A stretch of 64,000 bases of DNA, taken from Marsupella aquatica (taxonomy: Eukaryota; Plantae; Marchantiophyta). The stretch's first letter is position 1. Each line of letters begins with the position of its first letter. The stretch covers positions 393,473 to 457,472 of the forward strand of contig OZ316899.1 in NCBI GenBank assembly GCA_973895155.1, given 5' to 3'. Under the pieces are notes generated by a model. The model searched no databases and was not told the DNA's origin. It worked only from the letters and a program-made list of their open reading frames with translations. This document shows positions 4,919-51,559 of the stretch, in pieces. The position numbers and the translations under genes were made by a program.

Positions 4919-7390
4919 TGGTTGAGTCAAGCATCTTTGAATTCTTTGACTCAACTTTCAACAAAGAGGAAAAACCAGAATGGGTGACTAATGTGGAGAA
5001 GTGGGGAGTCGTAGAACTTGACTACCTTAACACTTAGGTCTGGCGTCGCTGACTTCGACGCCGAGTTCCCTTATGGTCCAGGCCCGGATAGGCCATCCGG
5101 GGAGGACTTAGCATGGGGAGACTTGTGGGCAACGAGATGTGGCGCTAGCGAAGGCAAGGAGCCAAGCTGGTGACACACACACTAAGGACTTGGACTAGTT
5201 GAGAGCTTGTCAGGTTAAGGGGAAATGGGCCGGGCTCAAGGACGACCGTCCGGACCTTCGGATAGACTTTCAATTTTGAGGGCTTGAGTGTGAGCTCCTC
5301 TTGGGCCCAAGGCCAATGGAGTTGACGCCATGGGCAACGGATGCTTGGGGCGCAAGTTATGGCCCGATCTGGGTTGGGCCGATTGAGGGCCCCAAGCGGC
5401 GATGAGACCTGAGGGCCTAGGCATGAGCACTGGGTCGGCCCGATCACAACGGGCTAAGGCACTCTGCTTGCGGATGCCTAACAAGAAAGTTATGGGCGTT
5501 GCCAGTTGGTGGCGCGCCCATTATGCGCGATAGGTTCCGGGTTGGGGGCCAAATGTTTAGGGACCAAAGCTGATCCGGGGGTGGCAGGTCTCCAGAATAA
5601 TATATGAGGGGAGTGGTGTCTCCTTGGGGGCTAAGGGCGAGCCGAAGTCGTGAGCCGCGGCGGTTGCGACACTAAGGGAAACTGCCAAACAGAAACCACA
5701 ATATCTTCCCAACGGGAAGTCCGTTGGAGGCAAGGCCAAGTACGTGTGGAGGTTGAGTTCCAAGAGTGTTCGGCCCCTAGACCATCAGTGAGGCAAATTG
5801 GGAGTTGGTTGCTAGAGTCGGGGCCATTCTGGTCCCGACGTGTTGGGACAAGCTTGGGACAAGCTTTAGGACAAGCTACGCTATTTGGGCCATGAGCATG
5901 TCCTGGGGTCAGGGCAGTCAGTTGGTGATGGATAGGTACGAGGGGGAACCTGGGCCGCGCCCAAGGAAGGAGTTGTTCTGGACGAACAGTGGGCGTGGGT
6001 TCTGGTTCCGGCTTATGGCATCGGGAGGACCTATCATTGACCTATTTACCAATGTCTGTTGAGCTCGAGTTAGGATGCTAGACTTGGCGAGTTCTAGATC
6101 CTGAAGGGTTACTTACCAAGGTGCTTGGTTGCCTGTGCAAACAGTGAGGACCGTTGAGTAGCGGTTGTGTTGGAGAGTAAGTGCGGCTTTGTATGGGAGG
6201 GGCCGCTAGTGGTGCAAGGGGCACTAGGGTGCTCGCTCGAGGTATTCCGTGGAGGCATTCAGGCACCATGGGCACTTAGGCGTGAGTGTTGGGATTGGTG
6301 AGGGCGCTGGGTGGCTAGGTCCACCACTTGGGGGAAGGATCTAGTTAAGTTGGGATATAAAGAAAAGGGCGCTATTTGGTGTGGAAAAGAAAGATGGTTT
6401 GGAGTTGACGCAGGCTTCATTTACCTTCCGACATGGTTCAAACCAACAATCCTTGACAAGAAAGTTCCAAAATGGAACATGCCAAATCAGTCCATGGCTA
6501 GTTGTTTTTTCAAATCCATGGACCCTTTTTTATCAGACAACGGGGTCCTCGCAATTTTGCACATCGGAGAGTACGATCCCATGTCTCAAGTCATTGCTGC
6601 CTTTCAGAGAATCAATGTTTGCTGGGAATGCTTGTCTGGCTGTTGGTTTTATGCAATTTGTCATTGAGCTTGTCATCCGTCCTTTGTTGCAGGAGATTTT
6701 TTGGGACGCTTTGAACTTGGTATAGAACATAGGAAAGACTTTATTGAAACCGCTTCAAAGGTTTTCATTGATTTGTTGTCACCCAAAGAGATTCAGGGTT
6801 TACCTCCTCTTGTTCCTTTGAGCAACAAAAAGAAGCAAGATAAGCTTCAATGGATTCTCAATTTTGATTCTGATGATGAGTCCAGCAATGGTGGAGAGCA
6901 ACAAGCTACGGGGCACTCAGGGGAGGAAAAGGGAGAGGCTGGTGTATCTCCTGACAGAAGTGATAGTGATGACTCTTTTGAATAATTTTTGTAAACTCAT
7001 AAGCTTCTTTCTCCATTCCCGTCCATTTTTACCAATGTTGTTTGGTTGTGGAAACAAGTACCTGAAGTGCTGCCATTTCCTTTCATCAGGTCAAAATGGA
7101 ATGCTAGGAGATGTTTCAAGCTCCAAATAGCACGACATGACATAGCAACACCAAAAAAACCTTTTGTGTTGCCCTCCTATGCAGAGAAAGCCAGAAGAAA
7201 AGTTGAGAGTACTAGGACACTTTGTTGGGAAAACAAAGGTCTTAGGTTATGAAGGGGCGTTGGTAGGAAGTTCATTAAAAATCCTTATGTAGATGACATT
7301 TCTTGGAGCCAGTACGTAGATGATGAAGCTATCTCCACAGACAGGTCACAAAGTACAGATTCAAAATCAGAATCTTATGAATCATGAATA
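4917..7390 (+). pseudogene. Old degenerate ORF of unknown function, split by the solo-LTR-like insertion at 5007-6328
   Basis: Removing 5007-6328 plus one TGGGG copy restores an in-frame read VESSIFEFFDSTFNKEEKPEWVTNVEKW-GKDLVKLGYKEKG...; further fragments at 6701-6985 and 7046-7390. Confidence 0.4.
5007..6328 (-). mobile_element. Solo-LTR-like element, AGT...ACT family, copy 1 (about 170 bp internal deletion)
   Basis: Ends AGTCGTAGA / TCCACCACT; flanked by 5-bp TSD TGGGG (5002-5006, 6329-6333); homologous to copies 2 and 3. Confidence 0.85.
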
Positions 7391-9390: not shown

Positions 9391-10769
9391 AGTGGTGAAC
9401 CTTGCCACCCAGCGCCCTCACCAATCCCAACACCCATGTCTAAGTGCCCTTGGTGCCCGAACACCTCCACGGAATACCTTGAGCAAGCAACCCAGTGCCC
9501 CTTGCACCACCAGCGGCCCCTCCCATACAAAGCCGCACTTTCTCTCTCACTGCCGCTACTCAACGGTCCTCATTGTCTGCACAAGCAACCAAGTGTCTCG
9601 GTAAGTAACCCTTTAGGATCTAGATCTCTCCAAGTCTAGCATCCTAACTCAAGCTCAACAGACATTGGTAAGTAGGTCAGCGATAGGTCCTCCCGATGCC
9701 ATACGCCGGAACCAGAACCCACGCCCACTATTCGTCCAGAACAACTCCTTTCTTGGGCGCGGCCCGGGTTCCCCCTCGTACCTATCCATCACCAACTAAC
9801 CGCCCTGACCCCAGGACATGCTTGTGGCCCAAATAGTGTAGCTTGTCCTAAAGCTTGTCCCAACACGTTGGGACCAGAATGGCCCCGACTCTAGCAACCA
9901 ACTCCCAATTCTGGCCCCACTGATAGTCTAGGGCCAAGCACCCTTGGAACTCAACCTCCACGCCTACTTGGCCTTGCCTCCCCAATGCAAGCACCCTTGG
10001 AAGATTGAACGCAGCTTGGCTGCTATTTCGGCAGGATTTGGCAAGCGAGCGAGCTAACACCTACAAACCTCAAGAACCCTTGGCACCCCCAGACCCAAAT
10101 AAGCTTAGGAGAACATAGCCCTCCTTGAGATCTTTCCAATGCACCCAAGAAGTCCTCCAACAGACTTCCCATTGGGAAATATCGGCGTTTCCATTTGGCG
10201 CTTTCCTTTAGTGTTGCGACCGTTGTGGCTCACGACTTCGGCTTGCCCTTAGCCCCCAGGGAGACACCACTCCCCTCATATATGGTTTTGGAGACTGTTA
10301 ACCACCAAAGTTGACTAGTTGCCAGCTCCTGGAGTTAACCATCCTCCGGAACTCCTAACTCCTCCACTATCCTTCTGTGTATCAATTAAACATCATACGG
10401 CTTCAATTGATCAAATTTCTCATTCACTTTTCATCTACTATTCAACCTTTTTGACAAACAATTAGTGATGACCTGTACGATTACTCGAGACAATGATCTA
10501 ACTATTCTTAGTTTGATCCTCCGCCTGTTACTTGAATTGAATGTCAATTTCCCTTTTTCCCTCCAGTTAATGTTTCTTCAAAGAGGAATTCCAAACCCAT
10601 TGTAGAAAGTTCCTCAGACACTGACTCTTCTTCTTCTTCTCCAATAATTCTCACCCAACTCTCAATCATGGCTTTACAATCATTCGGGGCATTTTGTAGC
10701 CCAAATGGGATGTGTTCCAATTTAAACGACCAATTAAAGGTAGCTAATTCCATGTTACCTACTCCGGGT

Positions 10770-11099
10770 TGTCACACCATTCTGAGTAGTGTAGTAGTAT
10801 ATCGTGCTATTAGAGTATGTACGGTTGGTATGAGTGCTATTGGAGCCGATAAGGTTCTGTCAGGTTTGTGTGAGAGGGTACTTCTCACTTGTGAGGCATT
10901 GAAAGGTCATCTTTCAATGTTGAGCCTTGGAGAGAGAGGAGCTTGAGTGTGGCTATGGTGGCTGTGAGCTCCGCTTGTGTAACGTGGATTCCTTGAGTAG
11001 TGCAAGGTGCGTTGCCTTGACATACGTGTGTGATCGGATCAGTGCGGGATCGATGGGGTATTGTTGACCGAGATCGTTGTGCCGATTGGATGGAGATTA
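10770..11099 (+). repeat. Terminal repeat A1 (330 bp)
   Basis: Matches 19868-20205 apart from 3 substitutions and one 8-nt indel that I could see. Confidence 0.95.
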
Positions 11100-11110
11100 C
11101 ATTGAAAGAT
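11100..11110 (+). promoter_or_regulatory. Putative self-priming PBS (CATTGAAAGAT)
   Basis: Exact reverse complement of ATCTTTCAATG at 10909-10919 inside repeat A; no tRNA-iMet PBS present. Confidence 0.7.
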
Positions 11111-11370
11111 CACATTCGAAATCTGTTGTACGGACTGTGCGGACAGAAGTTTGATTGATTGAGTTGTCGACGGTTCGTGGTAGCTCGGATTGTGTGCTGT
11201 TATCGAACAGATCGTTGGTATCTTGACCTGTATCGTTGTTGTCCGATCGGCCTGCTTCCCGATCGATGTACAGATCTGTGATTGGTGACAGGTTTTGAGT
11301 TGGAGGTCGATCGATGATTCGTGGAGGAAAGCGAATGTTGAGTAGATGTTGGACAGTGGAAGTCAATCTG

Positions 11371-11460
11371 TGAGGCTTCAGATCCGATTGTCGACTACTA
11401 TGAGGCTTCAGATCTGATTGTCGGCTACTGTGGGGCTTCAGATCTGATTGCCGGCTATTG
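11371..11460 (+). repeat. 30-bp tandem repeat x3 in the Gypsy 5' leader
   Basis: TGAGGCTTCAGATC(C/T)GATTGTCG(A/G)CTACT(A/G) repeated three times with minor changes. Confidence 0.85.
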
Positions 11461-11696
11461 TTGGACGATGTTGGCAAGGCACAGGTGAAGCGACGGCTCT
11501 TTTCCTGAAGGAACGGAGCTGCCAATGCCCCGTGCGACGGTATCATCGTTTCAGTGAAAGAAACGAGGGTCAAAGGTGTTGAATCAAGCTGCTGCCAGTT
11601 CTGTGGAAGGGCTGCGTTTTTCATGAAGGAAATCGACAGTTTTCGGGAGCTTTTCGTGAAGGAATTAGTCATTTTTGGGGTCAGGTGTGAGGCGCA

Positions 11697-11890
11697 CGAG
11701 GTCACCCATCCCGGAAGTGCTCGCGCGAGGCGACGCGTGAGGTCACCCATCCCGAAAGTGCTCCCAACCGCAAGCGCGAAGTCACCCATCGCGAGCGCAG
11801 GCAGACGCGAGGTCGGGGCTATTCCGGGCCGTGAGCGCGAGGAGAGGCACAAGGTCGAGCGCGAGGAGGTCACCCATCCCGGGGCTATTC
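11697..11890 (+). repeat. Four dispersed GAGGTCACCCATCCCG-like motifs in a CpG-rich leader segment
   Basis: Motif at about 11698, 11739, 11778 (variant) and 11866. Confidence 0.75.
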
Positions 11891-12615
11891 CCAGCCGCGA
11901 GCACTTAACTGGCAAGTTCTCATCCCACCTTGTGTACACACAAGCTTTGACAACTTGTTGTTTAGATTCAAGCGCCAGGGGGCTTTATACACTTCCCAAT
12001 TTGTTTAGAGGCCTATTCTAGGCCAAATCAGATGCTGTTTAAGGGTTTTTGATACTTCTGAGTCCATCTAGACTCACAGATTGAACCAATTTTGCCTTGG
12101 TTCTCATCTACAACATTGGAGTGCCATTGTGAAGCCTATTATGAAGGCTCTTCCTTGAACCTTATGCACATTGTCATATTGATTTGCATTTGCTTTTGTG
12201 TGGAGAGTTGAATGGTATCCATTCTTGTTTCTGGATCCTCTTCACACATGTTTCCTGTTTATGCGCCATGTTAGTTTCATGTGGGCGCTTGATTCCATAG
12301 GAGTGATCCGGGTTTGCAACTAGACATTCTAGTGTGCTGTGTATTTCTCTCTTGGTGATGTTGGAGTGATGCCCAACACACCATGGTGAGTGCTTGTGGT
12401 GCTGACAGGGATAGATTGCCCTTAGGGTTAGCACATAGATTAGGTTAGGGTTGGTCACCACGGATTCTTCTGGTGCTGCTGGATTACCCGATGGACGACG
12501 GACCGGTTTCACTCGGAGTGGGGCACAGTTTCGGCCAGCGGCATTGGTAGCAGTGCAGCTTCAGACAGTGATTCTGATGAGGACTCAGTGACCAGTTCTC
12601 CTCATCATCAGGTGG

Positions 12616-13755
12616 TTGCACCTTTGTTGTGGGATATGGACGAGATGTACGGGGCTACAAAGGGGCCCACGACGATACTTTGGTGCAGTTGGCACAATTG
12701 ATCTGGATGACTTCATCCAGGAGTTTGATACGTGGTGCGATATGCAGACATTGCGTAAGGTCACGTTGTTTACCCCTTTCATGGCATGGAAGGGATTATT
12801 CCAGCATTTGGAGGGGCCACCCATGGATGACTACCATGAGTTTCGGAAGGCTCATTTGGTTGAGATTGAGGCATGGAGGCAGCATTGGTCGCCTAATTAC
12901 GTGTCCATCACCTATGGCACTAGTGCGGCTGCCCAACCCATTGCCACAGCTGTTGCTTCTTCTAGCAGCACTAGCCAGAGTGGCACACCATCCACCACCA
13001 GCACTCCAGCAGCATCCACCACTACTCTTACCGGTGTGATTGTGACAGGAACTGGAGTTGCGCCAACATTTAATCTTGTGGTGGAATTCTTTGAGGTACT
13101 GAAGCAGAACTATCAGGGTGTGAGAACTGATAAGTTGAAGGGTCTTCAAGAGTTCCAACGCAAGACTGGAGAGAGCCTACGTGAGGCATACACACGTATG
13201 CGCAGATTGATCACTGTCACCAAGGGAGTGACAGAGGCTCAGGCAGTCCAGTTTTGGTATGCAATTCTGGATAGAGAATTGCGACGCAGAGTGAGAGATG
13301 TCACTCTGCTTAGGGATGCAGATCCCACATTAGCAGTTGTTTTCACCCTTTCTAAGCGCATTGAGCTCAATATGGTGAATGAGAAGGTGGTGACTTCCGG
13401 ATTTGCCAAGGAAGCACCAAAGGCTGCATCTACATCCACTCCACAGCCTACTGCACAGAAGAGCCAGAGGGAGAAGCCTACTGCACGAGAGTCTACCAGC
13501 CAGAGACCTGTGCCCTCTTATGCTGGACAGCAGTCAGGATGTTGGACCTGTGGTGGGGATCATGCACAGAGATATTGTCCAGATCATAGAGGATCAGGGG
13601 GAGCATCAGCGCCTGATCAGCGATAGTGTGATCATTGTGGAGCTCCTGGACACACCAAGGATAGGTGTTTCTCACTCCACCCTGAGTTACGGAGAGGAGG
13701 ATCCCGTACACATGATCAGGGAAGAGGAGGTAGAGGTGGTGGACGTGATCGTGGC
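12616..13755 (+). CDS. Gag with two zinc knuckles (5' start uncertain; in-frame TAG at 13624-13626)
   Basis: DLDDFIQEFDTWC capsid-like N-terminus, QEFQRKTGESLREAYTRM major-homology-like motif, CWTCGGDHAQRYC, then after the TAG CDHCGAPGHTKDRC in frame with ORF 13756. Confidence 0.85.
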
Positions 13756-14479
13756 ATGCCACATGCAGGGAGACAGGGAGGTGACGCTGCCCCTGCTATA
13801 ACCATAGATCCAAAGGATGCTAAGATTGCTCAATTGGAGCAACAACTAGCTGCCATAGCTAGTTCCCAGGTGAGACCTAATTCTGGTGATGGGGCATCTA
13901 CATCCTATGGACCTTCCACATCCCATGGTCCTTCCACATCTTATGGAGCTGATGGAGACCTTGCCACCATGGGATTCATGTGTGGCACTGCACATATTGA
14001 TGCATCAGCAGCTTTGACACGTGGGGCAGCCAAAGCTCTTGAGCCTCGAGGAGCAGTAGTGGAGTTAGATCCACAAAGGGGGGATGCACGTCGGCAGACA
14101 AAGCTTCCTCAGTCTTTTACATTGTCAGAGACAGTTCAGACTGCCTCTATGAACCCGGTTCGGACAAACCCTGATGTGGGTAAGTTGGCAGAATCAGGTA
14201 GTGATGCAGCAGGGATGACATGTACCTTGCTGGGGGCGGCTACTGCCATAGTACGCACCCCATTATTTTCAGCGACAGACATGCTGAACTTGGGAGTTGG
14301 TCCTACAGAAGTGTTCAGATTGGCAGCTACACTCTGTGAGGACACTCCAGTGGTTGCTTCCCATGCAGAAGCAACTTGCAGTGTTGATGCAGTGAAGACC
14401 ATGCCACCTACTACTACTAGTGAGACATGGCATGCAGCAGCAGCGAGGTTGGTGGATTTACCAGCACGCCCTGCATTTG

Positions 14480-14900
14480 AGAGGACTAGGTTTAAACCTA
14501 GTGTTGTGTCATTGGATAATCGGAGTGGTATCTTCCGATTAGTTGGGCCTTCTGGAGCAGTATACCAGCCAGAGAGAGTGTTACTGGATATTGGTGCTCA
14601 GCCCTTGATGTTGGGGAAGTCTGCCATACGTGGATTGGGATTGCATCCAGAGGATTTGGAGGATTGTCCCTTTCCCATTCAGACTTCATTGGGGGGACCT
14701 ACACCTACACAGCATATCACCAGGAGACCACTTGATTTGAGGATTCAGGAAGGTCATACCACAGATAGCTCACAGATACAGGCGCGAGCTATTCTGACTA
14801 AGGCAGAGTCATATGATGTGTTGGTGGGATGTACAGTGCTCTACCCCATGGGATTTATTCTTGATTTTTGGGAGGAATCAATGTCATATAGACCTGATTG
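14480..14900 (+). CDS. Aspartic protease domain (catalytic motif reads DIG rather than DTG/DSG)
   Basis: RVLLDIGAQPLMLG at 14575-14616 and YDVLVG flap-distal motif. Confidence 0.8.
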
Positions 14901-15294
14901 GCAGTCAGGAGATGCTCGATTGAGCAAATTGCCAGTGAGATTTAGTGGACCTGTGGAAGGCCCTAAATCCACACCATTGTCTTTGGCAACATTCAGTGGT
15001 GTAATTGCTAGACTTGATGATTTGATTGAGGGTAATGCGCATGCAGCCGATGTTCCACCATTGGAGGAGTCTCATGAGGAGCACATCATGCGAGGATTAC
15101 CTGTTGGCAGTGTTGTGCCACCAGTGTGGGGCACTGCACAGGCCTTGCCACAGGCAGCAGCACGATTGGTACATGATGCATGGCGTCATGCTTTTACACC
15201 ACAGTCAGGAGCAGAGCAGTCTCTTGCAGATGGACCTGTGACTCTTTCACCATTGGATACCACTCCTATTGCTTGGCAGTATCCACCGGAGGGT

Positions 15295-16250
15295 ATTTGT
15301 TTGTTGGATCTTTTTGGTGGGATTAGCACTGGATTGGCTGCTGTTCTTCAGGCAGGAATTCCTGTGCGTCGTTATTTGTATGTGGAGACAGATGAGACAA
15401 CACGGAGGGTCTCATTGCGACATGTGGCTATGTTGGTGGATAGATATCCACAGTTGCTGCCAGTGGATGCTGTTCGTGGTTATCAGCATGCACTACCTGC
15501 TGATATTTCATTGTTGGGGGCGGATCATCTACATCGTGTTGGCCCCATTGATTTGGTGATTGCTGGTTGGCCATGTCAGGGCCAATCTAGAGCTGGCGTT
15601 GGGCATGGACTTCATGATCCACGCTTTGCATTGTTTTGGGAGATGTTACGGGTGCTACGTCATCTCCAGCTACATCAGACACAGTCTCCAGCATACATTT
15701 TGGAGAATGTGCCATTGTTAGGTGATGATCGTAGTCGGATTGTTGCCAGTGTTCACCAGGTGAGGTCTTGGATTGGACCTGCTGTGTTATTGGATGTTGC
15801 ACGTGTGGGTTCTCATGCACATCGTCCACGCTTGTGGTGGACTAATTTGATCCCATGTGAGGTGCTGAAGCGTGCATTTGACAACATTCCACGCTCACCA
15901 GCCTTAGTGGTGGATGATATTTTGGATCCAGGGCGTCGTGCACAGGGTGTGACCCAACCTGATAGACCTCCATTGGCAATGGTCAATGCAGTTGGGTGCC
16001 CACGTTGTGCATTACCCACTCTTGTAAGCCACTCTGCTTCATATGCATTCAGAGCAGGTGGCCCTGGACTTGTATGGGACACAGCTCTCCAGCAGTTAGT
16101 GGAGCCTACTGCTGATGAGAGAGAGCGTGCTATGGGATTTTTGACTAGCACCACTGCAGTTGCCTCTGTGTCAGAGGGTTTGCGGCGCCAGGTTCTTGGT
16201 CAAGCAATGGATTTGAATTGTTTGACTTGGATTATCAGCTTGGGAGTAGC
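15295..16250 (+). CDS. C5 cytosine DNA methyltransferase domain (DNMT3-like) inside the Gypsy polyprotein
   Basis: Motif I LDLFGGISTG; IV AGWPCQGQS (catalytic Cys 15574-15576); VI ILENV (15703); VIII HRPRLWWTN (15823); X RQVLGQAMDLNCL; all in canonical order. Confidence 0.93.
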
Positions 16251-16473
16251 TGAACAGTTGCGGATGCGCTCTGCCGGAATTACTGATTATCCCTTGGTGA
16301 GCTTGCGGTCCACTGAGACAGTATTGACCACAACTGGGGGCGAGCAGACAGTCCATGGACCTATGACAGGATTGGCGGCTGGACAGATTGTTGAGCAGGA
16401 AGGGACTGCTCAATCTACTGCTAAATAGCAATCATCGGCTATCTCTTCTACCCTACAAAGAGATATTAGGGAT

Positions 16474-19212
16474 TTGGTGGAGAGTTGGGAACCACAGCTT
16501 GGCCCTAAGTTAACAGGGGAGGAGAGACGTTGCATGCATCGATTCCTGAAGAGTTATTGGAATTGTTTTGCATTCAGCATGAAGGATTTGGGGATATTGA
16601 AGGGCCCTGGTATTCAGATTGAATTGGCTAGTGATGCGCCAATCTTTCGTAGACCATACCGTTATAGTGACATGGAGAGAGCTCTGATTCAAAGCAGAAC
16701 TCAAGATTTGTTGGAGGCTGGATTGGTGGAGATTTCATACGGGGAGTATGCATCTGCCACAGTGATGCCAGCCAAGAAGGATGTGCATGGCAATTACACA
16801 GATAGGCGCATGTGTGGTGATTATAGACCTATTAATCGCCAGACAAAATCTGATCGATATGCCATGCCCACACCTGAGGAGATCTTTGATGTTGTGGGGC
16901 ATGCAAAGGTTTTCAGTTCATTGGATCTGAGGGCAGGATACCATCAGCTTCCAATTAGGCATGCTGACAGGTCCAAGACAGCATTCTGGGGGATTGATTC
17001 TTATGGCAAAGATCGTTTGTATCAATGGTTATTCTTACCATTTGGGTTGAAGAATGCACCAGCTGAGTTCCAGAGAGTCATGGATCGAATCCTTGCAGGT
17101 TTGGATTTTGTCAGATGTTATATTGATGATATTTTGGTCTATTCTTCTACTGTGGAAGAACATCAGCAACACTTGCAGACTGTGTTGGAGAGATTGAGAG
17201 CACATGGGTTGAAGCTCCATCCTAGCAAGTGTAAGTTCTTCCAAGACCAGATTGAGTATTTGGGCCACACCATATACCCAGGGGGATTGGGTGTACAGCA
17301 GACTAAAGTGGAGGCCATTACACAGATTCCTTGTCCTACTGATGTGAGTAGAGTTCGTGCATTCTTGGGATTGGCGAGCTACTACAGGAGGTATGTTAAA
17401 GGATTTAGCCAGCTTGCTAAACCTTTGACCATACTCACTAAGTTGGATCAGGAATGGATTTGGGGTGATGACCAGGAGCATGCCTTTCAGGAGTTGAAGC
17501 AAAGGTTGGCATCATCCCCTATTTTGAGAAGACCCATTTCAGGCAAACCATTTCAGCTACACACTGATTGGAGTGGAGTAGGACTTGGAGCAGTGCTGAC
17601 TCAAAAGGATGATGAGGGGAATGAGTTTGTTGTGGCTTATGCCAGTAGATCAAACAATTCAGCAGAGGCTAAGTATAGCTCTTATGAGGGAGAGTGTTTG
17701 GCAGCAGTGTGGGCTGTTGCACACTTTCGTTGCTACTTGTTTGGTAACCCCTTCACCTTGATCACTGATCATCAGCCTCTTAAGTGGTTAATGGAGTCTG
17801 ACAAGCTTACAGGGAAGCTTGCACGATGGGCATTGTTGTTACAGGAGTATGATTTCCAGGTGGTGCATAGGCCTGGAAAAGTGAACTTGGATGCAAATGG
17901 ATTAAGCCGCAATCCATGTACCAGTCAGCAGGATGAGACTGGAGCCAGATGGCATGATGAGTCAAATAAGGAGATGGTGCCAGGATGGCATGCATCTGCC
18001 TTTCTTTGTTGGGTGCCAGCATACAGTGGATCTGTGGACTCTACCTCATTGGATGGAGTGGATGATGAGTCTTCAGATGTGGATGTTGGTGAAGTAACTT
18101 CTGGACAGCAAGATATTCACAATGATGTGAGAGTGTTGGAATATCTGCGCAATAGTTCTATTGTTGGCAGTGTTGATGCCAAGGAACGTGACAGGGTTCT
18201 ACAGAGAGCCAAGAGGTTTCGATGGGAGGGAAACCATCTTTTGAGAGTACTGCATGATGGTAGGATGTTGGTGGTACCAAAACCATCACAACGAGTACAT
18301 TTGGTGCGACATGCGCACGAGGAGTTGGGTCACTTTGGTGTGAAGCGCACTTACAGCTTGCTGCAGACACAGTATTGGTGGCGTGGTATGCACACTCATG
18401 TCCAGCAGTTGATAGCTAAGTGTGTGGTATGTGACAGAGTGAGAGCATCATTTAATGCTCCCACTCCCCAGTTGCACCCGTTACCGATCATGGGTTTGGG
18501 ATATCGTTGGAGTTTGGATTTTGCTGGTCCATTACCTCTTACCCAACGTCATAATCGGTATGTTTTGGTCATGGTGGAGCACTTCTCCAAGTGGATTGAG
18601 CTAGTGGCGTTGCCAGATAAAGCCAGTGGAGGAGTTGCTGCTACATTTTTGGATCGTGTACTCAGTCATTTTGGAGCACCAGCTGAGGTGTTGACTGATC
18701 AGGGAACTGAGTTCCGTGGAGAGTTTGAGAGTTTGTGTGAACAAGCTCTGATTGATCATCGCACTACCTCTCGTGATCATCCTGAGGTAGATGGATTAGC
18801 TGAGAGAGTTGTGCAAACTGTGAAGAGAGGATTGCGTAAGTATGGCTTGCAGGTTGGTCATCTGGGAGATTGGGATCTCCAGCTACCTTGGTTAGCTATG
18901 GGCTACCGTTTCAGTCGGCAAGCATCACTTGCATCCTTCTCACCCTACTTTTTGCTCTATGGTAGAGAGCCAGATTTGCCAGCAGCTATTCGTCGTCACG
19001 TTGCACCAGTTGTGAACTTGGATGATCCTGATGTTTGGGTCAAGGTGTGTTCAGAGAGAGCACGGGTATTTCAGAGAGTGATGCCCATGGCTTTTGACAA
19101 CCTTGCCATTGCCCAACATCGTGATACTTTGAGGTATGCCACTATTCGTGGAGGAGGTTACCGTGCAAGCATTCGACGATTTTATCCTGGTGATTATGTT
19201 TATTTGCAGTAG
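16474..19212 (+). CDS. Reverse transcriptase - RNase H - integrase (HHCC plus DDE)
   Basis: RMCGDYRPIN, LDLRAGYHQ, LPFGLKNAP, YIDD (17119-17130); RH LHTDWS...YEGECLA...TDHQPL; INT HAHEELGH...CVVC, SLDFAGP, LTDQGTEF, DGLAERVVQ. Confidence 0.97.
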   Translation: MVESWEPQLGPKLTGEERRCMHRFLKSYWNCFAFSMKDLGILKGPGIQIELASDAPIFRRPYRYSDMERALIQSRTQDLLEAGLVEISYGEYASATVMPAKKDVHGNYTDRRMCGDYRPINRQTKSDRYAMPTPEEIFDVVGHAKVFSSLDLRAGYHQLPIRHADRSKTAFWGIDSYGKDRLYQWLFLPFGLKNAPAEFQRVMDRILAGLDFVRCYIDDILVYSSTVEEHQQHLQTVLERLRAHGLKLHPSKCKFFQDQIEYLGHTIYPGGLGVQQTKVEAITQIPCPTDVSRVRAFLGLASYYRRYVKGFSQLAKPLTILTKLDQEWIWGDDQEHAFQELKQRLASSPILRRPISGKPFQLHTDWSGVGLGAVLTQKDDEGNEFVVAYASRSNNSAEAKYSSYEGECLAAVWAVAHFRCYLFGNPFTLITDHQPLKWLMESDKLTGKLARWALLLQEYDFQVVHRPGKVNLDANGLSRNPCTSQQDETGARWHDESNKEMVPGWHASAFLCWVPAYSGSVDSTSLDGVDDESSDVDVGEVTSGQQDIHNDVRVLEYLRNSSIVGSVDAKERDRVLQRAKRFRWEGNHLLRVLHDGRMLVVPKPSQRVHLVRHAHEELGHFGVKRTYSLLQTQYWWRGMHTHVQQLIAKCVVCDRVRASFNAPTPQLHPLPIMGLGYRWSLDFAGPLPLTQRHNRYVLVMVEHFSKWIELVALPDKASGGVAATFLDRVLSHFGAPAEVLTDQGTEFRGEFESLCEQALIDHRTTSRDHPEVDGLAERVVQTVKRGLRKYGLQVGHLGDWDLQLPWLAMGYRFSRQASLASFSPYFLLYGREPDLPAAIRRHVAPVVNLDDPDVWVKVCSERARVFQRVMPMAFDNLAIAQHRDTLRYATIRGGGYRASIRRFYPGDYVYLQ

Positions 19213-19554
19213 ACAGCACCCATGACACTTGATGTGACCGCAGGCCGAACAATCTTACGTGTGCGTGAAGTGTTGCCTTCTGGTGTCCTGATGTTGGAGG
19301 GACGCAATGGTATGGTTTGGAAGGATCATGTGCGCAACTGTGCACCATGTCACCTTCCCAACATTGATGGTACAGTAGATCCAAGCTTGGCACATGTTCG
19401 TGCTGGCTTGAAATGTATGTTGTGTGGATCTGCTCAGGGAGCAGCTACTATGTTGATTTGTGATAAGTGTTCTAGAGGATGGCACATGTCATGTTTGACA
19501 CCACCATTGCAGGTGATTCCTAGTGGATCATGGTTGTGTCCTCAGTGTCGGTGA
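19213..19554 (+). CDS. Integrase C-terminal extension with PHD finger (in frame after TAG 19210-19212)
   Basis: C4HC3 pattern CMLC...CDKC..GWHMSC...WLCPQC at 19414-19551. Confidence 0.92.
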   Translation, partial: TAPMTLDVTAGRTILRVREVLPSGVLMLEGRNGMVWKDHVRNCAPCHLPNIDGTVDPSLAHVRAGLKCMLCGSAQGAATMLICDKCSRGWHMSCLTPPLQVIPSGSWLCPQCR

Positions 19555-19718
19555 AGCCGACTAGTTATCATTTGTGTTCTCTTGGCAGATATGGATTGCA
19601 GGTAGGTGATCGATGGGGCTCACTTGCACCCGGCCTCCTGATCTTCACACCTAAAAAGGTGTATATCAACCTTGTAGAACTCATGGCTAGCTAGAGTTAG
19701 GGGACCTTACTCCCAGCT

Positions 19719-19728
19719 AGGGGGGTGA
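19719..19728 (+). promoter_or_regulatory. Polypurine tract
   Basis: AGGGGGGTGA immediately before repeat B1. Confidence 0.8.
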
Positions 19729-19729
19729 T

Positions 19730-19865
19730 TGTGGGTTTTGGACATGTGTGGACATGAGTTCCACTTGTATTCCATTCTCTTGTATTTGTGATGTGGCAGT
19801 GTGACTATGTCTGGATGTATGTGACAAGCGATGTATGTTGTGTAGCGATATGTATGCGCACGACA
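19730..19865 (+). repeat. Terminal repeat B1 (136 bp)
   Basis: Identical by eye to 20207-20342; absent from the 5' end of the element. Confidence 0.95.
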
Positions 19866-19867
19866 GC

Positions 19868-20205
19868 TGTCACACCATTCTGAGTAGTGTAGTAGTATAT
19901 CGTGCTATTAGAGTATGTACGTTTGGTATGAGTGCTATTGGAGCCGATAAGGTTCTGTCAGGTTTGTGTGAGAGGGTACTTCTCACTTGTGAGGCATTGA
20001 AAGGTCATCTTTCAATGTTGAGCCTTGGAGAGAGAGGAGCTTGAGTGTGGCTATGGTGGCTGTGAGCTCCGCTTGTGTAACGTGGATTCCTTGAGTAGTG
20101 CAAGGTGCGTTGGCTTGACATACGTGTGTGATCGGATCGGTGCGGGATCGATGGGGTATTGTTGACCGAGATCGATGGGGTATTGTGCCGATTGGATGGA
20201 GATTA
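19868..20205 (+). repeat. Terminal repeat A2 (338 bp)
   Basis: Copy of A1 with an 8-nt local duplication. Confidence 0.95.
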
Positions 20206-20206
20206 T

Positions 20207-20342
20207 TGTGGGTTTTGGACATGTGTGGACATGAGTTCCACTTGTATTCCATTCTCTTGTATTTGTGATGTGGCAGTGTGACTATGTCTGGATGTATGTG
20301 ACAAGCGATGTATGTTGTGTAGCGATATGTATGCGCACGACA
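20207..20342 (+). repeat. Terminal repeat B2 (136 bp), right end of the element
   Basis: Ends CACGACA followed by TSD GGGT. Confidence 0.95.
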
Positions 20343-22339
20343 GGGTCTTACTCAGAATTTGTCTCTTATCTATTACTCAACATTTCACTTTGGCAAGGAT
20401 TTTTTTAACAATTTATAATCTCAATCACCACATGCCATACTATTCTGATATTTCCTTTTACAGGTTCCAACCAAATCCAAATGAATTCTCCATTGTCAAA
20501 TGTTAATATTTCCAGCCATCTCTTTTTCAGTATCAATTTCTTAGTTTTGATTCTACTGACATACAACAAATATAAGCTATGCAATCGAATGCTTCATGAA
20601 GTCCTGCCAACAGGCCTTGATTGCATCTTTCATTCCATGAACACATCAATTTCTTTACATGGTTTTTCTTCCATGGGCTTCCATCTACCTCCAGATCTAG
20701 CAATCCGACACTACCTCCTCCTGGGCTGCCTCTCGAGCTTCCTGATCCTGAAAGTTTCCACAACAAAAGACCCTTTCCACTCCTACTTTGCTACCCTATA
20801 TTTCTTCTACAGGCAGGTTTGTCCAACTTCCTCTAACAATTAGCAGTTGTAACTGTCAAACTGCTTATTCAGTTTTTCTAACCGCTTTATTCCACTAAAG
20901 GCACATGTTAATCATTACTTGTCACAGTAACTCTTAACTGTTACTTGCTACTGGATCCTGCATCTCTTAACTGGTTGTCTTTTAGTTAATCGTTCTTCGG
21001 AACGATCAGTCGAAGTTTTGTCCTCGGGTTCGGTGGCTCCAATGTTAAGCGCTTGAATGGCGACCTCCACCGGTTCTACTTGGGTTTCACTGACTCTTGC
21101 CCCTGATCGCCGGTATGTGGGGTGGGTCCTCATTCTCTGGAATCCTAATATCTGTTGAGTTTTCTTGTGGCGGTTCTCTGCAATTCTCACTACCCAACAC
21201 TCATTCATTACACGGTGACAGTCTCTCTCTTGTGTACCAAATTGCTTGTGAAATTCATGGCCAGGCACTCCAAACAATTGACATCCAGCTTCTTCCCACA
21301 CTTGATACACAACTGTATTGATTTGCAGAAAGAAATTGTACATGTGTTGGCCTGATCCAACCGTTCTACAAAAATGATTGGTTCGCTTCCGCATCGACAA
21401 CCCTGCATCCTGGTGTTCTCTGTTCACTCTAGCTCTGCAAGCACTTGGACCTAAAGCGCACATTTTCCCATCTTCCAAGGGAATATCACATCCTTCATAA
21501 ACTAACTCGCTACCATGCATGCCCCAAATTGCTTCAATGGTTACTCCAATCAGGCAGAGGACTCCAGGTTGCTCCATCTCTGTAAAGTTGCCACTATACC
21601 ACAAAAACTGAACCTCAACTAGAAAAATGAAGTTCGTCTAGAGGTTTTTAGGGTTAACCTAGTGAAGGCCCTAAAGTCCTTACTTCTACTTAACTATAAC
21701 TCAATGATTAGCTTAATTGCTACTAATCCTGACTTGCTAAAATTTAACATTTCAAAGACTTGCCACCCCCGGACCAGCTTTGGTCCCTAAACTTCTGGCC
21801 CCCAACCTGGACCCTATCTCGCATACTGGGCGCGCCACCAACTGGCAATGCCCATAACTTTCTCGTTAGGCGTCCGCAAGTGGAGTGCCTTAGCCTGTTG
21901 TGATTGGGCCGACCCAGTGCTCATGCCTAGGCCCTCAGGTCTCATTTCCGCTCAGGGTCCCCAATCGGCCAAACCCGGATCGGGCCATAACTCACGCCCC
22001 AAGCGTCCGTTGCCCATGGCGTCAACTCCATTGGCCATGGGCCCAAGAGGAGCTCACACTCAAGCCCTCAGAACTCAAAGTCCGTCCAAGGGTCCGGATG
22101 GTCAACCTTGAGCCCGACCCCTTTTCCCCTTGACCCGACCACCTCTCAGCTAGCCTAAGTCCTTAGTGTGTGTCACCAGCTTGGCGCTTTGCCTTTGCCA
22201 GTGCCACGTCTCATTGCCCACAAGTATCCCCATGCTAAGTCCTCCCCGGATTGCCTATCAGGGCCTGGACTATAAAGGAGCTTGGCGTAGGAGTCAGTGA
22301 CGCCGGAGCTAAGTGTTAAGGTAGTTGAGTTCCACGACT

Positions 22340-23057
22340 CATCTTTTGCAAGATGTACAAATTATTCTGGTATAGTGTCTTAATCAAAGATGTATCACCT
22401 TTGACAACAAAGAGCACACCATGCATCACGTGCAGTGAAAATGCTTCCAAAGCACCAAAGGAAATCAAATTCTTAGAGATGTTTTGTATGTGCCTGATTT
22501 TTGTCAGTGCTCGCATAACATTATCAAACATCCAGAATTTGATAGTGCCCATGCCAACAATTGCACATCAAACACCATTGCCAATTTCCACCATACCGGT
22601 ACAAGGTTGGTAAGTGGAGAAATACAATTGCGTTGGACACACGTGATAAGAGGAATCCAAATCTAACATAGTATACATAGAATTCATAGCACCAATACAT
22701 AGCACTTGAGCAACATCCTCATGATCAGCAATCACAATATCAGCTGAAGACGAGGACGCACCATTAGAAGCAAGACGCCTCTACTTTAATAGAGAAGGAT
22801 AATTCCACTTGATGTGGTCCTTCTCATGGCAATGCCAACACTAAACGTTCTTACTACGGGACTCTTGAAGGATGCATAGCTCATGAGAAACTACATGTGA
22901 AGAATGAGGAAGAGAATGCTCTCCCTCCAACCTATACCCCTCAAGGGGGCAGAGATGATTGGGCCTAAACCAAGCGTAGCTTATCCTAATGTAATCCAGG
23001 GTTAACTAACCCAAGTAAGGCCAAACTAGAAATCAGGAACTCAAGTCAATTCCTAAC
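22340..23057 (-). mobile_element. Copia fragment (zinc knuckle, protease region) fused to a partial LTR (about 22871-23057)
   Basis: CWHCHEKDH, WILDSDSSYHVC, VGMGTIKF...KNLISFGAL; partial LTR is homologous to 24030-24218. Confidence 0.75.
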
Positions 23058-26947: not shown

Positions 26948-28991
26948 TTAGGCGAGATAGCGATAGAGTTTCCTGTCAGATCTATCCCTTTCAAGAAATT
27001 CACGTTCAATAAGAGATTCGATACGCTTTTTAATGACTGCAGGGTTGGGAAGAAATCGGGCTTGTAACTGCTTTGTGACCTCGCTGATAATGTTATTGTG
27101 ATCTAAAACACGTCTCGACTTCATAATTCTAACCACTGCTGCTTCTATCTGTGGCTTCCTATCTTCCTCCACTTTCTGGCGGGTTTCTTGCTTTTCAGGT
27201 TCACTCTCCTTCTGAGCAACTACTGTACTAATCTTGACCTTGTAAAATTTACTCACAAACTTATCATTGAAAAGGAAAACATCGTCCTCCCTAATGTCCT
27301 TGCTCATCGGCTCCTTCCGCAGGACATTTTTGCCTTTCACACATGCTAGTGATTGGAGATTCCTCTTCAGATCCTGACATGGCATATCGGTAGCTTGCTC
27401 AATTTCTCGATAATTTAACTTGTCAGCCATGTTGAAAAGCGAGAGGACACACATTTGATACGTTGAAACATTGAGCTCGTGTTTTTGTCCATTCCCAAAG
27501 GTGGCTTTCAGATCTGCAGTTCCCATGTTGGTTTGCCATGTAAGGCGCCGACCTGTATGTGTAGACAAATAGTAAGCCTTGAACTTGTCGCACATACTGA
27601 GAACCTCTGTTGGCAGATTACACCTAGCACCGGATTGCGTTGGCCAAGAACCGGTTGTGAGCACCTGCACAGCTAGAGTGGGGCCTTCACTAGATTCGGT
27701 AGAAGAGAGCATGGCATTGAAACCATGCATGGTATCCCTTGATGTCTTCATATCAGTGAACATGCCCTCGAGCTTGGATGTGAACTGGTATCCACACTCG
27801 GTCTTCAACTTAACAATCAAGCTTCTTTCAGCATCATCAGACACAGTTCTGCCTGACAAGAGACGCTTTGCCAGATGCTGCTTATAATACTTCTCAAATA
27901 CGTCTTTCTCTTGCAAATACCGGAACAACATCATCACCTTGTCCAGCACGGTCTCAACGTCCTCCTCGCTGACACCCTTCAAACCCTTACGAAGCTTATC
28001 ATCTACAAAAAGAGAAATAAATTCCGGCGACCTAATATTGAGATTGATGAAGTACTCGAAGGAAGAATTCAATGCATTTTGAAAGGTCTTATCGTTGTTA
28101 AAAGACAAGCGTATGACATTGTCATATTTATCCTTCTCATCCAGTAGCCCTTGCACAAACTCTACAGGGTCCTTCAATCTTTCGGGATCCATCACAAGCT
28201 GTTTGCCGGTTTCTCGAAGATGGCTGATCATGACCTCCCGAATAATTTGCAATCCGGTGGTAACACGACGAAACAGACTATACATTCGGGCCAGATCATC
28301 GTACTTATCATCGACGAACATGGACACGAGCCCAGAATTCTCCATCTCCACAAGAAGCTTCATGTGAGAACCGATCATTTCCCTCTCAACGACTGCAGTA
28401 ATTTTCATCTCACTCTGTCCATCAAGATAGTGAGTAACCCGCTCTATTTCTTCGTTGAGCCTCCTCTCTGCCTTTCTCAGATAGTCCGAACAATCACTGG
28501 TTTGAATGAATTGTTGTGATTCGAGTCTGTAGAAGTCGGCCGCGGCGTCCAGAAAGGGCTTCTCAAAGTCTTCCTGATACACAGTTGGCCCCAGATCCAT
28601 TAACATCTTGGTAATGTTGCGCATCAACCCCCTATTTATAACCTCACCAGTTCGTTCCCTATGTACAAGGTCAAGAAGTGTATCCAACAAGCGATCCCTG
28701 ATTTTAGATGATCGGAGAATGTTATCCCTCCACAAATTGAGCCCCAGCTCATGAACAGGAGTCTTATTATAATTAGTCACATACGTTCTGTCCATATACA
28801 TCAGAATGTCCCGAATCATCTGCAAAGATTTGTTGTGCTCCAACCACTTATTGTTGAGTTCTTCCAAAAACAGCCCTCCTTGGGCAGACTCAATCGCCTT
28901 CGCAACTTCACGCAGATGCTGTGTCATGGTGTTAACGAGACCCGAATATAGTTTCTCGCCATACTTATGAAGGACCATGTTGTAGGCATTC
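26948..28991 (-). CDS. CUL3: Cullin-3, exon 2
   Basis: NAYNMVLHKYGEKLY..., cullin homology domain, neddylation motif EAAVVRIMKSRR and C-terminus KKRIESLIEREFLERDRSDRKLYRYLA; acceptor TAG at 28992-28994. Confidence 0.98.
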
Positions 28992-29690
28992 CTACACAAC
29001 AATCCAGGAAGGTACAACACGTTACTGAAATAGCAAGCTACCACCTACAATAGGGACTAAATTTCTTGGATAAGCATGTTTCTGGGGCTTCCCAAATCAC
29101 CAAGAGCCGTCGTAATTCCTAGAGAAAGCATCGCCACAACATCCCGAGCCCCTAAGGGATGCGACAGGACGTACGGGAGGAAGCGAGAGTAGAGTAGAGA
29201 AGAAAAGAGGGACTGTGGGTGTGTGGGGGGGGGGACTGCTATCACGCCGATAACCAGCCTCTAGATACCAGTTCTACCAAAGTGATAACACAGTTGACCA
29301 GGCACGCAGTACCGGGGAGGGACGACAAAATGACGGCGAATACCGAGGAGGGCAGGAACATGCTCCCAAGCACAGTAACGGTTACTCTTTCCCTGACAAA
29401 TTGGTTTAAACTGCACGGAAGACAAGCTCCTCAAGCTCGTGCCCCCTGACCCTCGATAACTGTCCAAGAATACCCAATGCAAACGCAACGGAAGTACTAG
29501 TCTTCCCAAAAACCCGGAGTGGGCGATGTCGGCTGGTGGATATTAATCTGCAAATCGAGTCACATGACTCGAAAAATCGAACCAACAGGATAAATCCGGC
29601 TGAACTGCCGAAATACGTCTCTTTCGGCAAAGCGTGGAAACCTGAGAGAGTGGTTCACTGACCAACGAAGAGAATAGAGTAATTGCATAC

Positions 29691-38684: not shown

Positions 38685-41600
38685 AATGTGCGACCCTCTC
38701 AAAATATGTTACCACGGAGATTGAGAGCAGCATATCGGGAAATGGGTATGCCGGAAGAAGGACAAGGCTCTGAGTCACATTCCTCATCAAGTGACAGTGG
38801 AAGCAACAACCCTGATCGCAATGTACCCAGAACATATGAACAGGTTATTGATGACCAAGATAGAGCCATGGATGATTTTATGGTTGATTGGTTTGGTGTT
38901 GACGTCCCTGGTGATGATGCTGAGGTGTCTGCTGATCAAGGAGGTCATGTGCCCCCCAATGATCCACGACCAAGACATACCCCCGAGGGACAGCGCCAAT
39001 GGGAGGAAGCAGAGGAACATGCCCGAACTCCTATCTATGAGGGTGCTCGTTTGAGTCATCTTTCTGTTATCTTGGGGTTGATGAATCTACAGGCCAAACA
39101 CAAGGCAAGCAATGCCTTGTTATCTGATATGTTTGCACTTTGCCATGACCTTATGTTACCTTCTGGCAATGTGTTGCCAGGAACTTGGAAGGAGGCCAAG
39201 CGTGTTCTCTCATCAATTGGCATGGAATATCATATCATTCATGCATGTGTGAATGATTGCATGTTATTTCATGGGGCCGATGAGAAGAAGACACAGTGTA
39301 CTGAATGTCATGAGCCACGATATGACCCCAACATGATTACAAAGAAGGTGCCAAGAAAAGTTGTTCGTTGGTTTCCCATCATTCCTCGGTTGTTGCACAT
39401 GTACAGGTGTTCTGATTTGGCAGAGTTGATGGTATGGCATAAGACTCATCGATCAGAGCCTGGTGTTATGCGGTTGCCAATTGACTCTCTTGCAGTCAAA
39501 CATATTGAGGAAACATGGCCAGACTTTGCACATGATCCTCGTCATGTGAGGTTGGGATTGGCATCTGATGGGGTTAGTCCTCATGCCCTTGGAGGCAAGG
39601 GAAGACCTACATCAGTTTGGCCTGTGGTTGTGATGAATTACAACCTTCCACCATGGCTATCCATGAAGAAGGGGTTCCTCTTGCTGTCTTTGATTATTCC
39701 AGGTCCAAAAAAGGTGAAGAACTTTGACACTTATTTGGCACTATTGATTGGAGAACTCCAAAAACTGTGGGGTGGAGTGTGGGCATATGATGGCAGGAAA
39801 AATACAGGAGGCATTCCACGTGTATTTAAATTGAGAGGGGTAGTTTGTTGGACAATGCATGACTATCCTGGTAAGATGACTTTTTGACCATATGCCACCC
39901 TTCTTTGATATGCTCTTTAATATACTTGTTTGTCATGTGACAACCCTAACATTTAGTCTGGTTTTATTTTTGGTGTAACCAGGGTTTGGCTTTGTCTCTG
40001 GATTGCAAACTCAGGGGTACAAAGCTTGCTCCATCTGTGGTCCACAATTGCAAGATATGACAATTTGGTCCCCATGGCTTAGGAAGATTGTTTACATTGG
40101 GCATACAAAGTTTCTTCCGATGGGGCATGAGATGAGGTCTGACCCACTTTTATTTTCCTCCTTTGACATGCCCCTTGGTGATATGCGGGAAATTCCGGAA
40201 CCAACAACTTTTGGGCATTGGAAGTCACTAGCTGATAGGGTGGCAGACCCTGATGATCCCCTCACCTTTGATGGTACTGGGTTGACGAGGTGGAGTATAC
40301 TAGCCAGTTTGCCCTATTGGTCAGAGTTGAAGATCCGCCATCTTTTAGACCCCATGCACATAGAGGGAAATGTGGGGAAGGCGTTGATAGCTCATTTTAT
40401 GGGGAGAAGGACACTAACTTCAGGGAGGCATGTGAAGAGTTGGAAATGCATCCAGATGTATGGGTACAAGTTGATCCTGCCACAGGTTTGGAACATCGTC
40501 CTTCTGCTCCTTGGGTGCTTAGTGTTGGCCAAAGACGTGAATTCCGGAATCGTATAGGGGAGATGCGGTTTCCTACAGGCTATGGTGCCAATTTGAGGAA
40601 AGCTTTTGGGATGGAGGACAATCACAAATGGCCACGGTATCTCAAGACACATGACTATCACCGCTTATTGCAGCATATATTGCCAGTGGCAATTATAGGG
40701 TTGGGGACCAAAGAAGTGCAAGATGCCATTTGGTCATTGGGTCGTTTGTTGAGATGGATATGCTCAAAGGAGATATATGTGGAAGAGATTCCTGGAATGG
40801 AGGTATTGGCTGCTGAGGTGGTTTGCAAGTTGGAGAAGGCCCTCCCTCCTTCCTTCTTTGATTGTCAGGTTCATTTACTTGTGCATCTTGTGAGGGAGGT
40901 TGTCATTGCTGGTCCAGTTCATTGTCGATGGATGTACTGGCTTGAGCGTTACATGTCAGTCTTGAAGGCTTATGTACGTAACCGTGCACGAGTGGAGGGA
41001 AGCATAGCTATAGGATACTTGGCTGCAGAGAGCATGTTTTATTGTAGTAACATCTTGGCCACCATTGATCGGACTTTACCACGTACTTGGATGGAGGAGA
41101 GGCAAGAGGAGGAGGACCGTTTAACAGGAGCAACAAAAACACGCATGCTTACATCAACAGAGTGGACACAGTTGAATACATTCATGTTGAGTAATAGCAA
41201 TGTCATGGATGAATGGAGGGAGTTTTATGACAATGCCAAAAGAATGAGTCAAAGGGCAAGGATTTTTCCTAAGTTGCATGAGTTTATGAAGGAAAAGTTG
41301 GTTGAGTTGGATGGCATTTTGGCACAAGGAGGAGATGTCTCACAGTTTCCTACTATGACAAATGACATTCGGACCATTGTTCATGGCCCTTTGAGAGTGG
41401 TAACATCCAAGACGGCCATGTGGACCCAAGGGAGACACTTCAGGTTTCACTAGTTCCTAACCTTGTTTTTCATATTCATGTACTACTACTTAAGATATAG
41501 TAATCATTTTACTTAAGATAAGTGTGTTTTTCTCTTTTGGTATGAAAGGTTCCTCATAACATGATTAGTGTTTTTTGTGTAGTAGTAACAATATATGGGT

Positions 41601-47438: not shown

Positions 47439-47499
47439 CTTGCTTTGTCCTAATCCTATCTACTGCGCTACCAATCGATGCCCAATGACAACTATTATG

Positions 47500-51540: not shown

Positions 51541-51559
51541 ACTTGTGCCTGGAATTCAA

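Follow-up and report, generated by a model that had tools for sequence, protein, structure and literature searches.

A split-repeat Ty3/Gypsy element of Marsupella aquatica and a conserved palindrome as its candidate internal integrase site

How does a retrotransposon insert itself when its integrated ends lie within, and not at the tips of, the DNA that its reverse transcription should produce? The question is raised by a Ty3/Gypsy element of Marsupella aquatica, which spans positions 10770-20342 of a 64,000-nucleotide stretch of contig OZ316899.1 (hereafter the window) and is flanked on both sides by GGGT. Its direct repeats are split into two parts, A and B, arranged as A1, coding region, B1, A2 and B2. 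B1 is identical to B2, A2 departs from A1 in 3 substitutions and an inserted 8 nucleotides (nt), and a GC spacer at 19866-67 gives a B1-A2 boundary of CACGACA-GC-TGTCACA. The palindrome at its centre, GACAGCTGTC (19862-71), is the sole GACA-NN-TGTC in the window, which holds no second copy of the element. A sequence-only reading of this DNA had already proposed the A and B repeats, the spacer, the palindrome and the GGGT target-site duplication (TSD), all of which are borne out; its A-B boundary shifts by 1-2 nt (19728 and 20205 for the first base of B, 11098 and 20204 for the last base of A) and is placed at GAGATT-to-ATTGTG by relatives and by a 12-nt match between primer and primer-binding site (PBS). 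The element is a Ty3/Gypsy variant whose layout has been in print once and whose mechanism is well constrained but unproven. We consider it quite probable, from the comparisons below, that its integrase cleaves at this internal palindrome, the putative attachment (att) site.

The insertion itself is sharply defined. In 4/4 public runs, drawn from two studies, a contig of the empty site joins position 10765 to 20343 through four shared letters; the ends of the element and its 4-bp TSD are therefore real, and a misassembly or a chance TSD is excluded. The element is multi-copy, with element/empty-site depth ratios of 715 and 49 between runs, which are not copy numbers. To place it among its relatives we used 86 loci, namely the best 80 of 430 confirmed metagenome loci and 6 from a genome scan, and counted each insertion once (L046=L010, L047/L053=L048, L068=L067, L070=L071, L074=L076, L055=L054, L037=L036 and L051=L050). 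Relatives at 45-74% protein identity share the layout. Both ends are seen in 12 distinct insertions including the window, of which 8 are A...BAB (window, L010, L048, L049, L060, L066, L071 and L075) and 4 are A...B (L011, L015, L017 and L063); L008 and L009, which are 97.5% alike with matching 4-bp flanks, may be a fifth A...B and are excluded from the 12. The A...BAB architecture first read from the window copy is thus family-wide. Ordinary paired LTRs (long terminal repeats) occur in 0/12 of these insertions, and no ordinary B+A or paired A+B end was found among the 86 loci.

Each end of these 12 insertions falls at an att arm. Nine are flanked by identical 4-bp TSDs, two by TSDs with a single mismatch and one by a TSD with two; a 3-, 5- or 6-bp duplication fits worse, and the chance of the 4-bp fit is <1e-16. 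Every visible 5′ end begins at the TGTCA arm (16/16), with B upstream in 0/16. The visible 3′ ends, counted by eye, comprise 16 BAB, 14 B-only and one partial A followed by B (L012), and in none does A lead into host DNA, the arrangement that an ordinary B+A LTR would produce; six more are uninformative, with A running into PBS-like sequence or into the contig end. In runs X3 and X4, which contain the family of the window copy, 42 and 49 contigs, respectively, leave the last base of B into unrelated flanks (agreement 0.37), 9 and 28 enter B at 19728 from A-end-like sequence, and several joints run from shortened A ends back to B. The closed loop of L081 and the A-to-PBS-like runs of L003, L020, L030 and L083 were considered as physical circles and rejected, being expected from short-read collapse of A1 and A2. 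At L039:4602-4631, the first 29 nt of A are tandemly duplicated at the 5′ end.

Taken by itself, the window copy could be read as an ordinary LTR element altered by a single rearrangement, by autointegration or by misassembly, and its B+A unit could be misread as an LTR of the form TGTG...TTACA. We rejected the latter, as the join excludes the CA and relatives have no TG/CA there. The one-off origin is refuted by the empty site, by the same layout and 4-bp TSD in 11 further insertions, which belong to two other families (BAB turns up in a fourth family as well), and by the 86 loci, among which no ordinary end was seen; its probability is negligible, and a DIRS-like layout is also in print for Klebsormidium in the text of PMC5890265. 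A misassembly or ordinary LTRs in other copies would have undone the sequence-only reading, and neither was seen.

Which enzyme could act on such ends? A single long frame (12592-19554) encodes, in order, a gag-like region, a protease motif, a C5 methyltransferase, reverse transcriptase (RT), RNase H, an H2C2 zinc finger, an rve integrase and a PHD finger. The D,D(35)E triad of the integrase (D697, D757 and E792) is invariant in 34/34 aligned proteins, and a tyrosine recombinase has 0 Pfam matches in 76 frames of at least 120 amino acids from 8 elements (76 of 87 listed frames, the remaining 11 being minus-strand frames of L083), in agreement with the DDE enzyme proposed from the sequence alone. 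The element shares with Ty3/Gypsy the order gag-protease-RT-RNase H-integrase, a Gypsy-type RT, a DDE integrase with an H2C2 zinc finger, TG...CA integrated ends, a short TSD, a PBS after the 5′ repeat and a polypurine tract (PPT) before the 3′ repeat, but it has no two complete LTRs ending at the PPT- and PBS-defined ends of the complementary DNA (cDNA; 0/12 insertions with both ends). TOC1 is a split-direct-repeat retrotransposon with a tyrosine recombinase. PAT, Ngaro, VIPER and TATE, as described in the text of PMC6681497, likewise have A1...B1A2B2 split direct repeats and integrate at the B-A junction; our element differs from them in having no detected tyrosine recombinase, and in its DDE integrase, TG/CA ends, 4-bp TSD, PBS, PPT and Gypsy-type RT.

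The start of reverse transcription is indicated by the 12 nt that follow A1. They are fully complementary to 10909-10920 within A (probability by chance ~2e-5), which marks the PBS in silico as one of the self-priming type and not a tRNA site. The primer/PBS helix forms in both the minimum-free-energy and the centroid folds; overall, folding of the leader is unexceptional (z-scores -1.2 and -1.0), and the claim is limited to this helix. Five loci from four families carry differing primer/PBS pairs, each complementary, a pattern of covariation, and in four relatives the primer lies ~30 nt downstream of a TATA-like box. Self-priming with a primer taken from the element's own RNA is described for Tf2 and Tcn1 in the text of PMC5341516 and PMC6317226, and Tf1/Tf2, Sushi and the plant element Tcn1 share a primer from the 5′ end of their own RNA and a PBS beside the LTR; those elements have ordinary paired LTRs and a chromodomain, whereas ours has split repeats and a PHD finger. 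With a start in A1 and R inside A, standard replication would yield a linear B-GC-A...B-GC-A cDNA, and B2 would not be copied from RNA.

Two further observations touch the priming region. In three families (window 10897-10920, L015 ~2660-2686 and L081 ~7228-7251) the self-primer is closely preceded by a short inverted repeat, which was not seen in the L060 family and could form a hairpin with the primer in the 3′ copy of A. At L020:3361-3878, A enters the PBS, folds back on the self-primer site and continues as a reverse copy of A to its first base; this fold-back displays the primer/PBS complement and is probably a library or assembly chimera.

The two junctions of the repeats differ in their conservation. 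The palindrome recurs in 22 loci, either at the B1-A2 boundary or 3′ of the PPT, among them elements with 51% and 41% protein identity (L083 being the latter, in which it is extended to a perfect 16 bp), and the PPT precedes GACAGCTGTC by 54-173 nt across a range of protein identity from 74% to 41%. The 2-nt spacer is free of indels in 22/22 loci and is GC or a transition thereof in 21/22, and the palindrome is essentially the sole LTR sequence that aligns between distant families. The proposal that the integrated ends are the two arms of an internal palindrome, separated by a 2-nt spacer, is supported. At the A-B join, in contrast, the base before the PBS is fused to the base after the PPT. 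The ends that reverse transcription would define (ATTG..GATT, AGTT..TTTC and ATAC..CAAT) have no TG/CA in 3/3 families with both ends clear. Scored by eye, 17 joins comprise 11 exact fusions of the PBS-defined to the PPT-defined end, as the sequence-only reading had proposed, 5 imprecise ones and 1 that is uncertain (L082). The imprecise joins are those of L010 (a 19-nt insertion with a PPT remnant), L060 (B shortened by 147 nt), L071 (microhomology of 2 nt) and L050 and L076 (small deletions), and deleted joins are present also in runs X3 and X4. Indels thus affect 5/17 joins versus 0/22 att sites (Fisher p=0.011), which fits an att site that is inherited and selected and an A-B join that is ligated anew in each cycle.

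The same layout could come from replication of the PAT/Ngaro kind, in which the RNA would run from A1 through B2, the ends would be rebuilt on the internal B1-GC-A2, the join would be inherited, and a DDE integrase would have replaced the tyrosine recombinase at the rebuilt B-A junction. VIPER, Ngaro and PAT have the same A1...B1A2B2 layout in the text of PMC6681497, and A...BAB without a mirror form is what this scheme would give if the rebuilt junction alone were used. We nevertheless regard it as distinctly unlikely: in every family examined the self-priming PBS adjoins A1 and the PPT adjoins B1, which fits standard LTR replication with R in A, and the join lies exactly at the PBS/PPT edges, with copy-specific indels and the PPT remnant of L010, as expected of fresh ligation.

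In the mechanism that we favor, transcription would run from the self-primer in A1 to an end in A2, B2 would never be copied from RNA, and the A-B join would therefore be remade every cycle. Self-primed reverse transcription would produce the linear B-GC-A...B-GC-A cDNA with att-less ends, and host end-joining of its blunt ends would close a 2-LTR circle. The integrase would then nick CA^GC on both strands of the 5′-LTR palindrome, leaving CA-3′OH ends and 2-nt 5′ overhangs like those of processed retroviral ends; the GC would be lost, and a 4-bp staggered insertion, expected from established DDE chemistry, would create the TSD. The att of the 5′ LTR alone would be used; a speculative explanation is that the plus-strand jump makes this att double-stranded at once, whereas the 3′ LTR becomes duplex only after ~8.6 kb of the plus strand has been made. 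A...B forms would arise by capture before displacement, as a 1-LTR circle, or by later recombination between B1 and B2. We put the probability of this full chain, with the circle formed before integration, at roughly 0.55.

Elements with related chemistry are known. The DDE enzymes of IS3 (IS911), IS30 and IS21 integrate from abutted ends with a 2-3 nt spacer, and these are bacterial DNA copy-out circles with a transposase-made junction and no reverse transcription. Our element has the 2-nt spacer between abutted ends and the DDE enzyme in common with them, its own circle being a predicted one. Integrases of foamy virus and HIV-1 are reported to cleave the palindromic LTR-LTR junctions of 2-LTR circles (PMC1180852 and PMC4372172; see also PMC1905944), and the cut proposed here would resemble theirs in that a DDE integrase cuts within a palindromic LTR-LTR junction and thereby generates processed ends. 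In those viruses the palindrome is made of ligated RT ends and serves a side route, whereas here it would be a templated, inherited U3 site, the RT ends have no att, and the route is apparently the normal one.

Several observations weigh against this circle-first chain. A symmetric 2-LTR circle with two identical att sites should give ABA...B as often as A...BAB, and the mirror form was seen 0 times versus 8 (p=0.004), which speaks against the plain 2-LTR-circle form; either the 5′ att is therefore preferred or 3′-att events were annealed to A...B, and the circle model needs an extra bias toward the 5′ att. Of the integration from a circle junction put forward in the sequence-only reading, the use of an internal att is supported and the circle is a candidate substrate; a symmetric circle is also at odds with the 16 visible 5′ ends, none of which has B upstream. 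B-only 3′ ends are about as common as BAB, which fits 3′-att events resolved by annealing. Among the matches listed for X3 and X4 there is no flank-to-A-start junction, though contigs begin exactly at 19868, and L030 and L083 show the palindrome alone, without a terminal B. The relatives come from short-read metagenome assemblies that could collapse a young ABA; the scored A pairs are 5.5-14% diverged, and an ABA of similar age should therefore have been resolved. Finally, the window copy is probably not autonomous, having two copy-specific in-frame stops (TAG 13624 is missing in 13/14 relatives and TAG 19210 in 53/60).

Part of this pattern would follow if no circle preceded integration. The integrase would act on the internal att of the linear cDNA, and strand transfer would come first, with the chromosome left broken between the free end of A and the short arm of B; host end-joining of this break would give A...BAB. 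At the 3′ att, a long free arm of A would lie beside a second A, and single-strand annealing would turn such events into A...B. End-joining after strand transfer would yield identical ends, the same TSD and equally heterogeneous A-B joins, and the missing ABA...B and the near-equal BAB and B-only ends (16 vs 14) need no cutting bias. On this route, however, the host would have to mend a broken chromosome at each insertion through an arm of just 115-180 bp, and unprotected plant retrotransposon cDNA circularizes by end-joining according to the text of PMC5338827. We hold this linear route to be possible but doubtful, and retain the circle-first chain as our working mechanism.

Has such an element been described before? 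The sequence-only reading knew of no description, which in the literature searched holds for the mechanism, TSD and att site and is wrong for the layout. For KnitGypsy-Dnmt3 of Klebsormidium nitens, de Mendoza et al. (2018) state that the repeats are 'the same as a DIRS retrotransposon', A-coding region-B-A-B, in the legend of their Fig. 4c (PMC5890265). That element and ours share the Gypsy domain set, a C5 methyltransferase inside the polyprotein and the A-coding-B-A-B order. The text and text supplements of PMC5890265, figure images being outside this scope, contain no TSD, att palindrome, self-priming, join analysis, circles or mechanism. In the literature searched it is the sole description of a split-repeat layout on a Gypsy, and no description of the att palindrome or the mechanism was found there, Repbase, theses and subscription journals being outside that coverage. 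Passages of a 2026 preprint name 'streptophytes (Gypsy-DNMT3)' and give no structure, and neither Klebsormidium nor Marchantia is named in the plant LTR survey PMC6317226.

The closest named proteins are from the liverworts Calypogeia, Marchantia and Riccia, and more remote ones are from Closterium, Klebsormidium and Tetraselmis. In a quick RT-RNase H tree (32/40 rows), the window groups with the liverwort, Closterium, Klebsormidium and Tetraselmis proteins in one green-lineage clade (SH-aLRT 99). Four K. nitens proteins in this RT clade have no methyltransferase region, and none of the 62 methyltransferase-region matches is a K. nitens protein. No relatives were found among viral contigs. L081-L085 are clade members in contigs of bacterial genome bins, probably through eukaryotic contamination, and L081 has long open frames.

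Coordinates of the element are collected in Table 1. The methyltransferase and PHD domains and the TAG-CAR stop are added here to the earlier description. PF00145 is present in the window, L003, L066 and L081, homologs of the methyltransferase region occur in Marchantia, Calypogeia and Sphagnum, and the protease has weak matches in the relatives L003 and L081. At the position of the stop between methyltransferase and RT, 28/30 close loci, plus L081, have an in-frame TAG/TAA followed by CAR. CAR-YYA is a readthrough consensus, and the TAG-CAA-TCA stop (16426) is likely a programmed readthrough site; if so, the methyltransferase would be made at gag-level amounts. This TAG-CAR stop is limited to one subclade and does not occur in the L043/L066 family, L030 or L083.

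Table 1. Features of the split-repeat Gypsy element, in window positions
Feature	Position	Strand	Basis
Left TSD, GGGT	10766..10769	+	Empty site with single GGGT in 4/4 runs
A1, right-hand portion of the LTR unit as reverse-transcribed (U3 end, R, U5), opening with the TGTCA att arm	10770..11098	+	End set by PBS edge
Predicted self-primer, 12 nt, at the inferred transcript 5′ end	10909..10920	+	Perfect complement of 11099-11110
Self-priming-type PBS; left edge is the right end of A	11099..11110	+	Primer/PBS pairs differ and covary between families
Gag-like frame with CCHC knuckles, ending at in-frame TAG (13624)	12592..13626	+	Position and motif, no Pfam match
Rest of gag, aspartic protease motif, C5 cytosine methyltransferase domain	13627..16428	+	PF00145, E 2e-9
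Conserved TAG-CAA-TCA stop between methyltransferase and RT	16426..16434	+	Recurs in close loci
RT, RNase H, H2C2 zinc finger, rve integrase, ending at TAG (19210)	16429..19212	+	Domain searches
C-terminal PHD finger of integrase	19213..19554	+	PF00628, E 9e-12; fused to integrase in homologs
PPT; right edge is the start of B	19719..19727	+	Sequence
B1, left-hand portion of the LTR unit (U3 start), closing with the CACGACA att arm	19728..19865	+	Sequence comparison
Internal palindrome GACA-GC-TGTC, inferred integrase attachment site, 2-nt spacer	19862..19871	.	Present in 22 loci
A2	19868..20204	+	Repeat of A1
A2-B2 join: PBS-defined end fused to PPT-defined end, without TG/CA	20199..20212	+	Deletion-bearing joins in other copies
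B2, terminal copy ending CGACA	20205..20342	+	X3/X4 contigs leave the end of B into unrelated flanks
Right TSD, GGGT	20343..20346	+	Empty site in public runs

The 5′ leader holds three 30-bp tandem repeats (11368-11457) and three 37-bp repeats (11698-11902); a likeness of the latter to antisense 5S rRNA was considered and rejected, as Rfam gave no match. On the minus strand, 11097-11984 is a frame of 295 codons for which Pfam gave none either. The element sits inside an older repeat family, with copies at 9391-10295, 5006-6328, 21756-22348 and 45939-47439 that are 77-89% alike. Elsewhere in the window, a long frame at 26948-29044 is, by its translation, what we take to be a cullin-3-like host gene. 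Other frames resemble a CACTA transposase (38685-41453), a second, unrelated Gypsy with gag and RT (51383-54071) and a Copia RT fragment (262-1041), while 57809-61790 and 63347-64000 hold a 1.9-kb duplication together with another copy in inverted orientation.

What would such a route mean for this group of elements? LTR circles are generally regarded as dead ends, and cleavage at an internal site once the RT ends have been fused is not known to be the usual path for elements of this kind. A plant mobilome paper, in the text of PMC5338827, describes plant LTR circles as end-joining products and reports no evidence that they re-integrate. In this widespread natural clade, the RT ends have no TG/CA and would be unusable, and a 10-16 bp palindrome is the only deeply conserved LTR sequence; the question of whether circles are precursors is therefore testable on a defined DNA substrate. 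We see an even chance that an old green-lineage Ty3/Gypsy clade, present in liverworts, mosses, charophytes and probably chlorophytes, shifted its att from the cDNA ends to a palindrome in U3, needs host end-joining, and integrates by cutting an LTR circle at the 5′-LTR site, which would make it the first LTR retroelement lineage with an obligatory circle-junction route. Annotation tools that expect paired LTRs would likely mis-bound such elements. The conserved palindrome points to a DDE integrase that may cut an internal duplex site symmetrically, and the arrangement suggests that host end-joining may aid rather than restrict the element.

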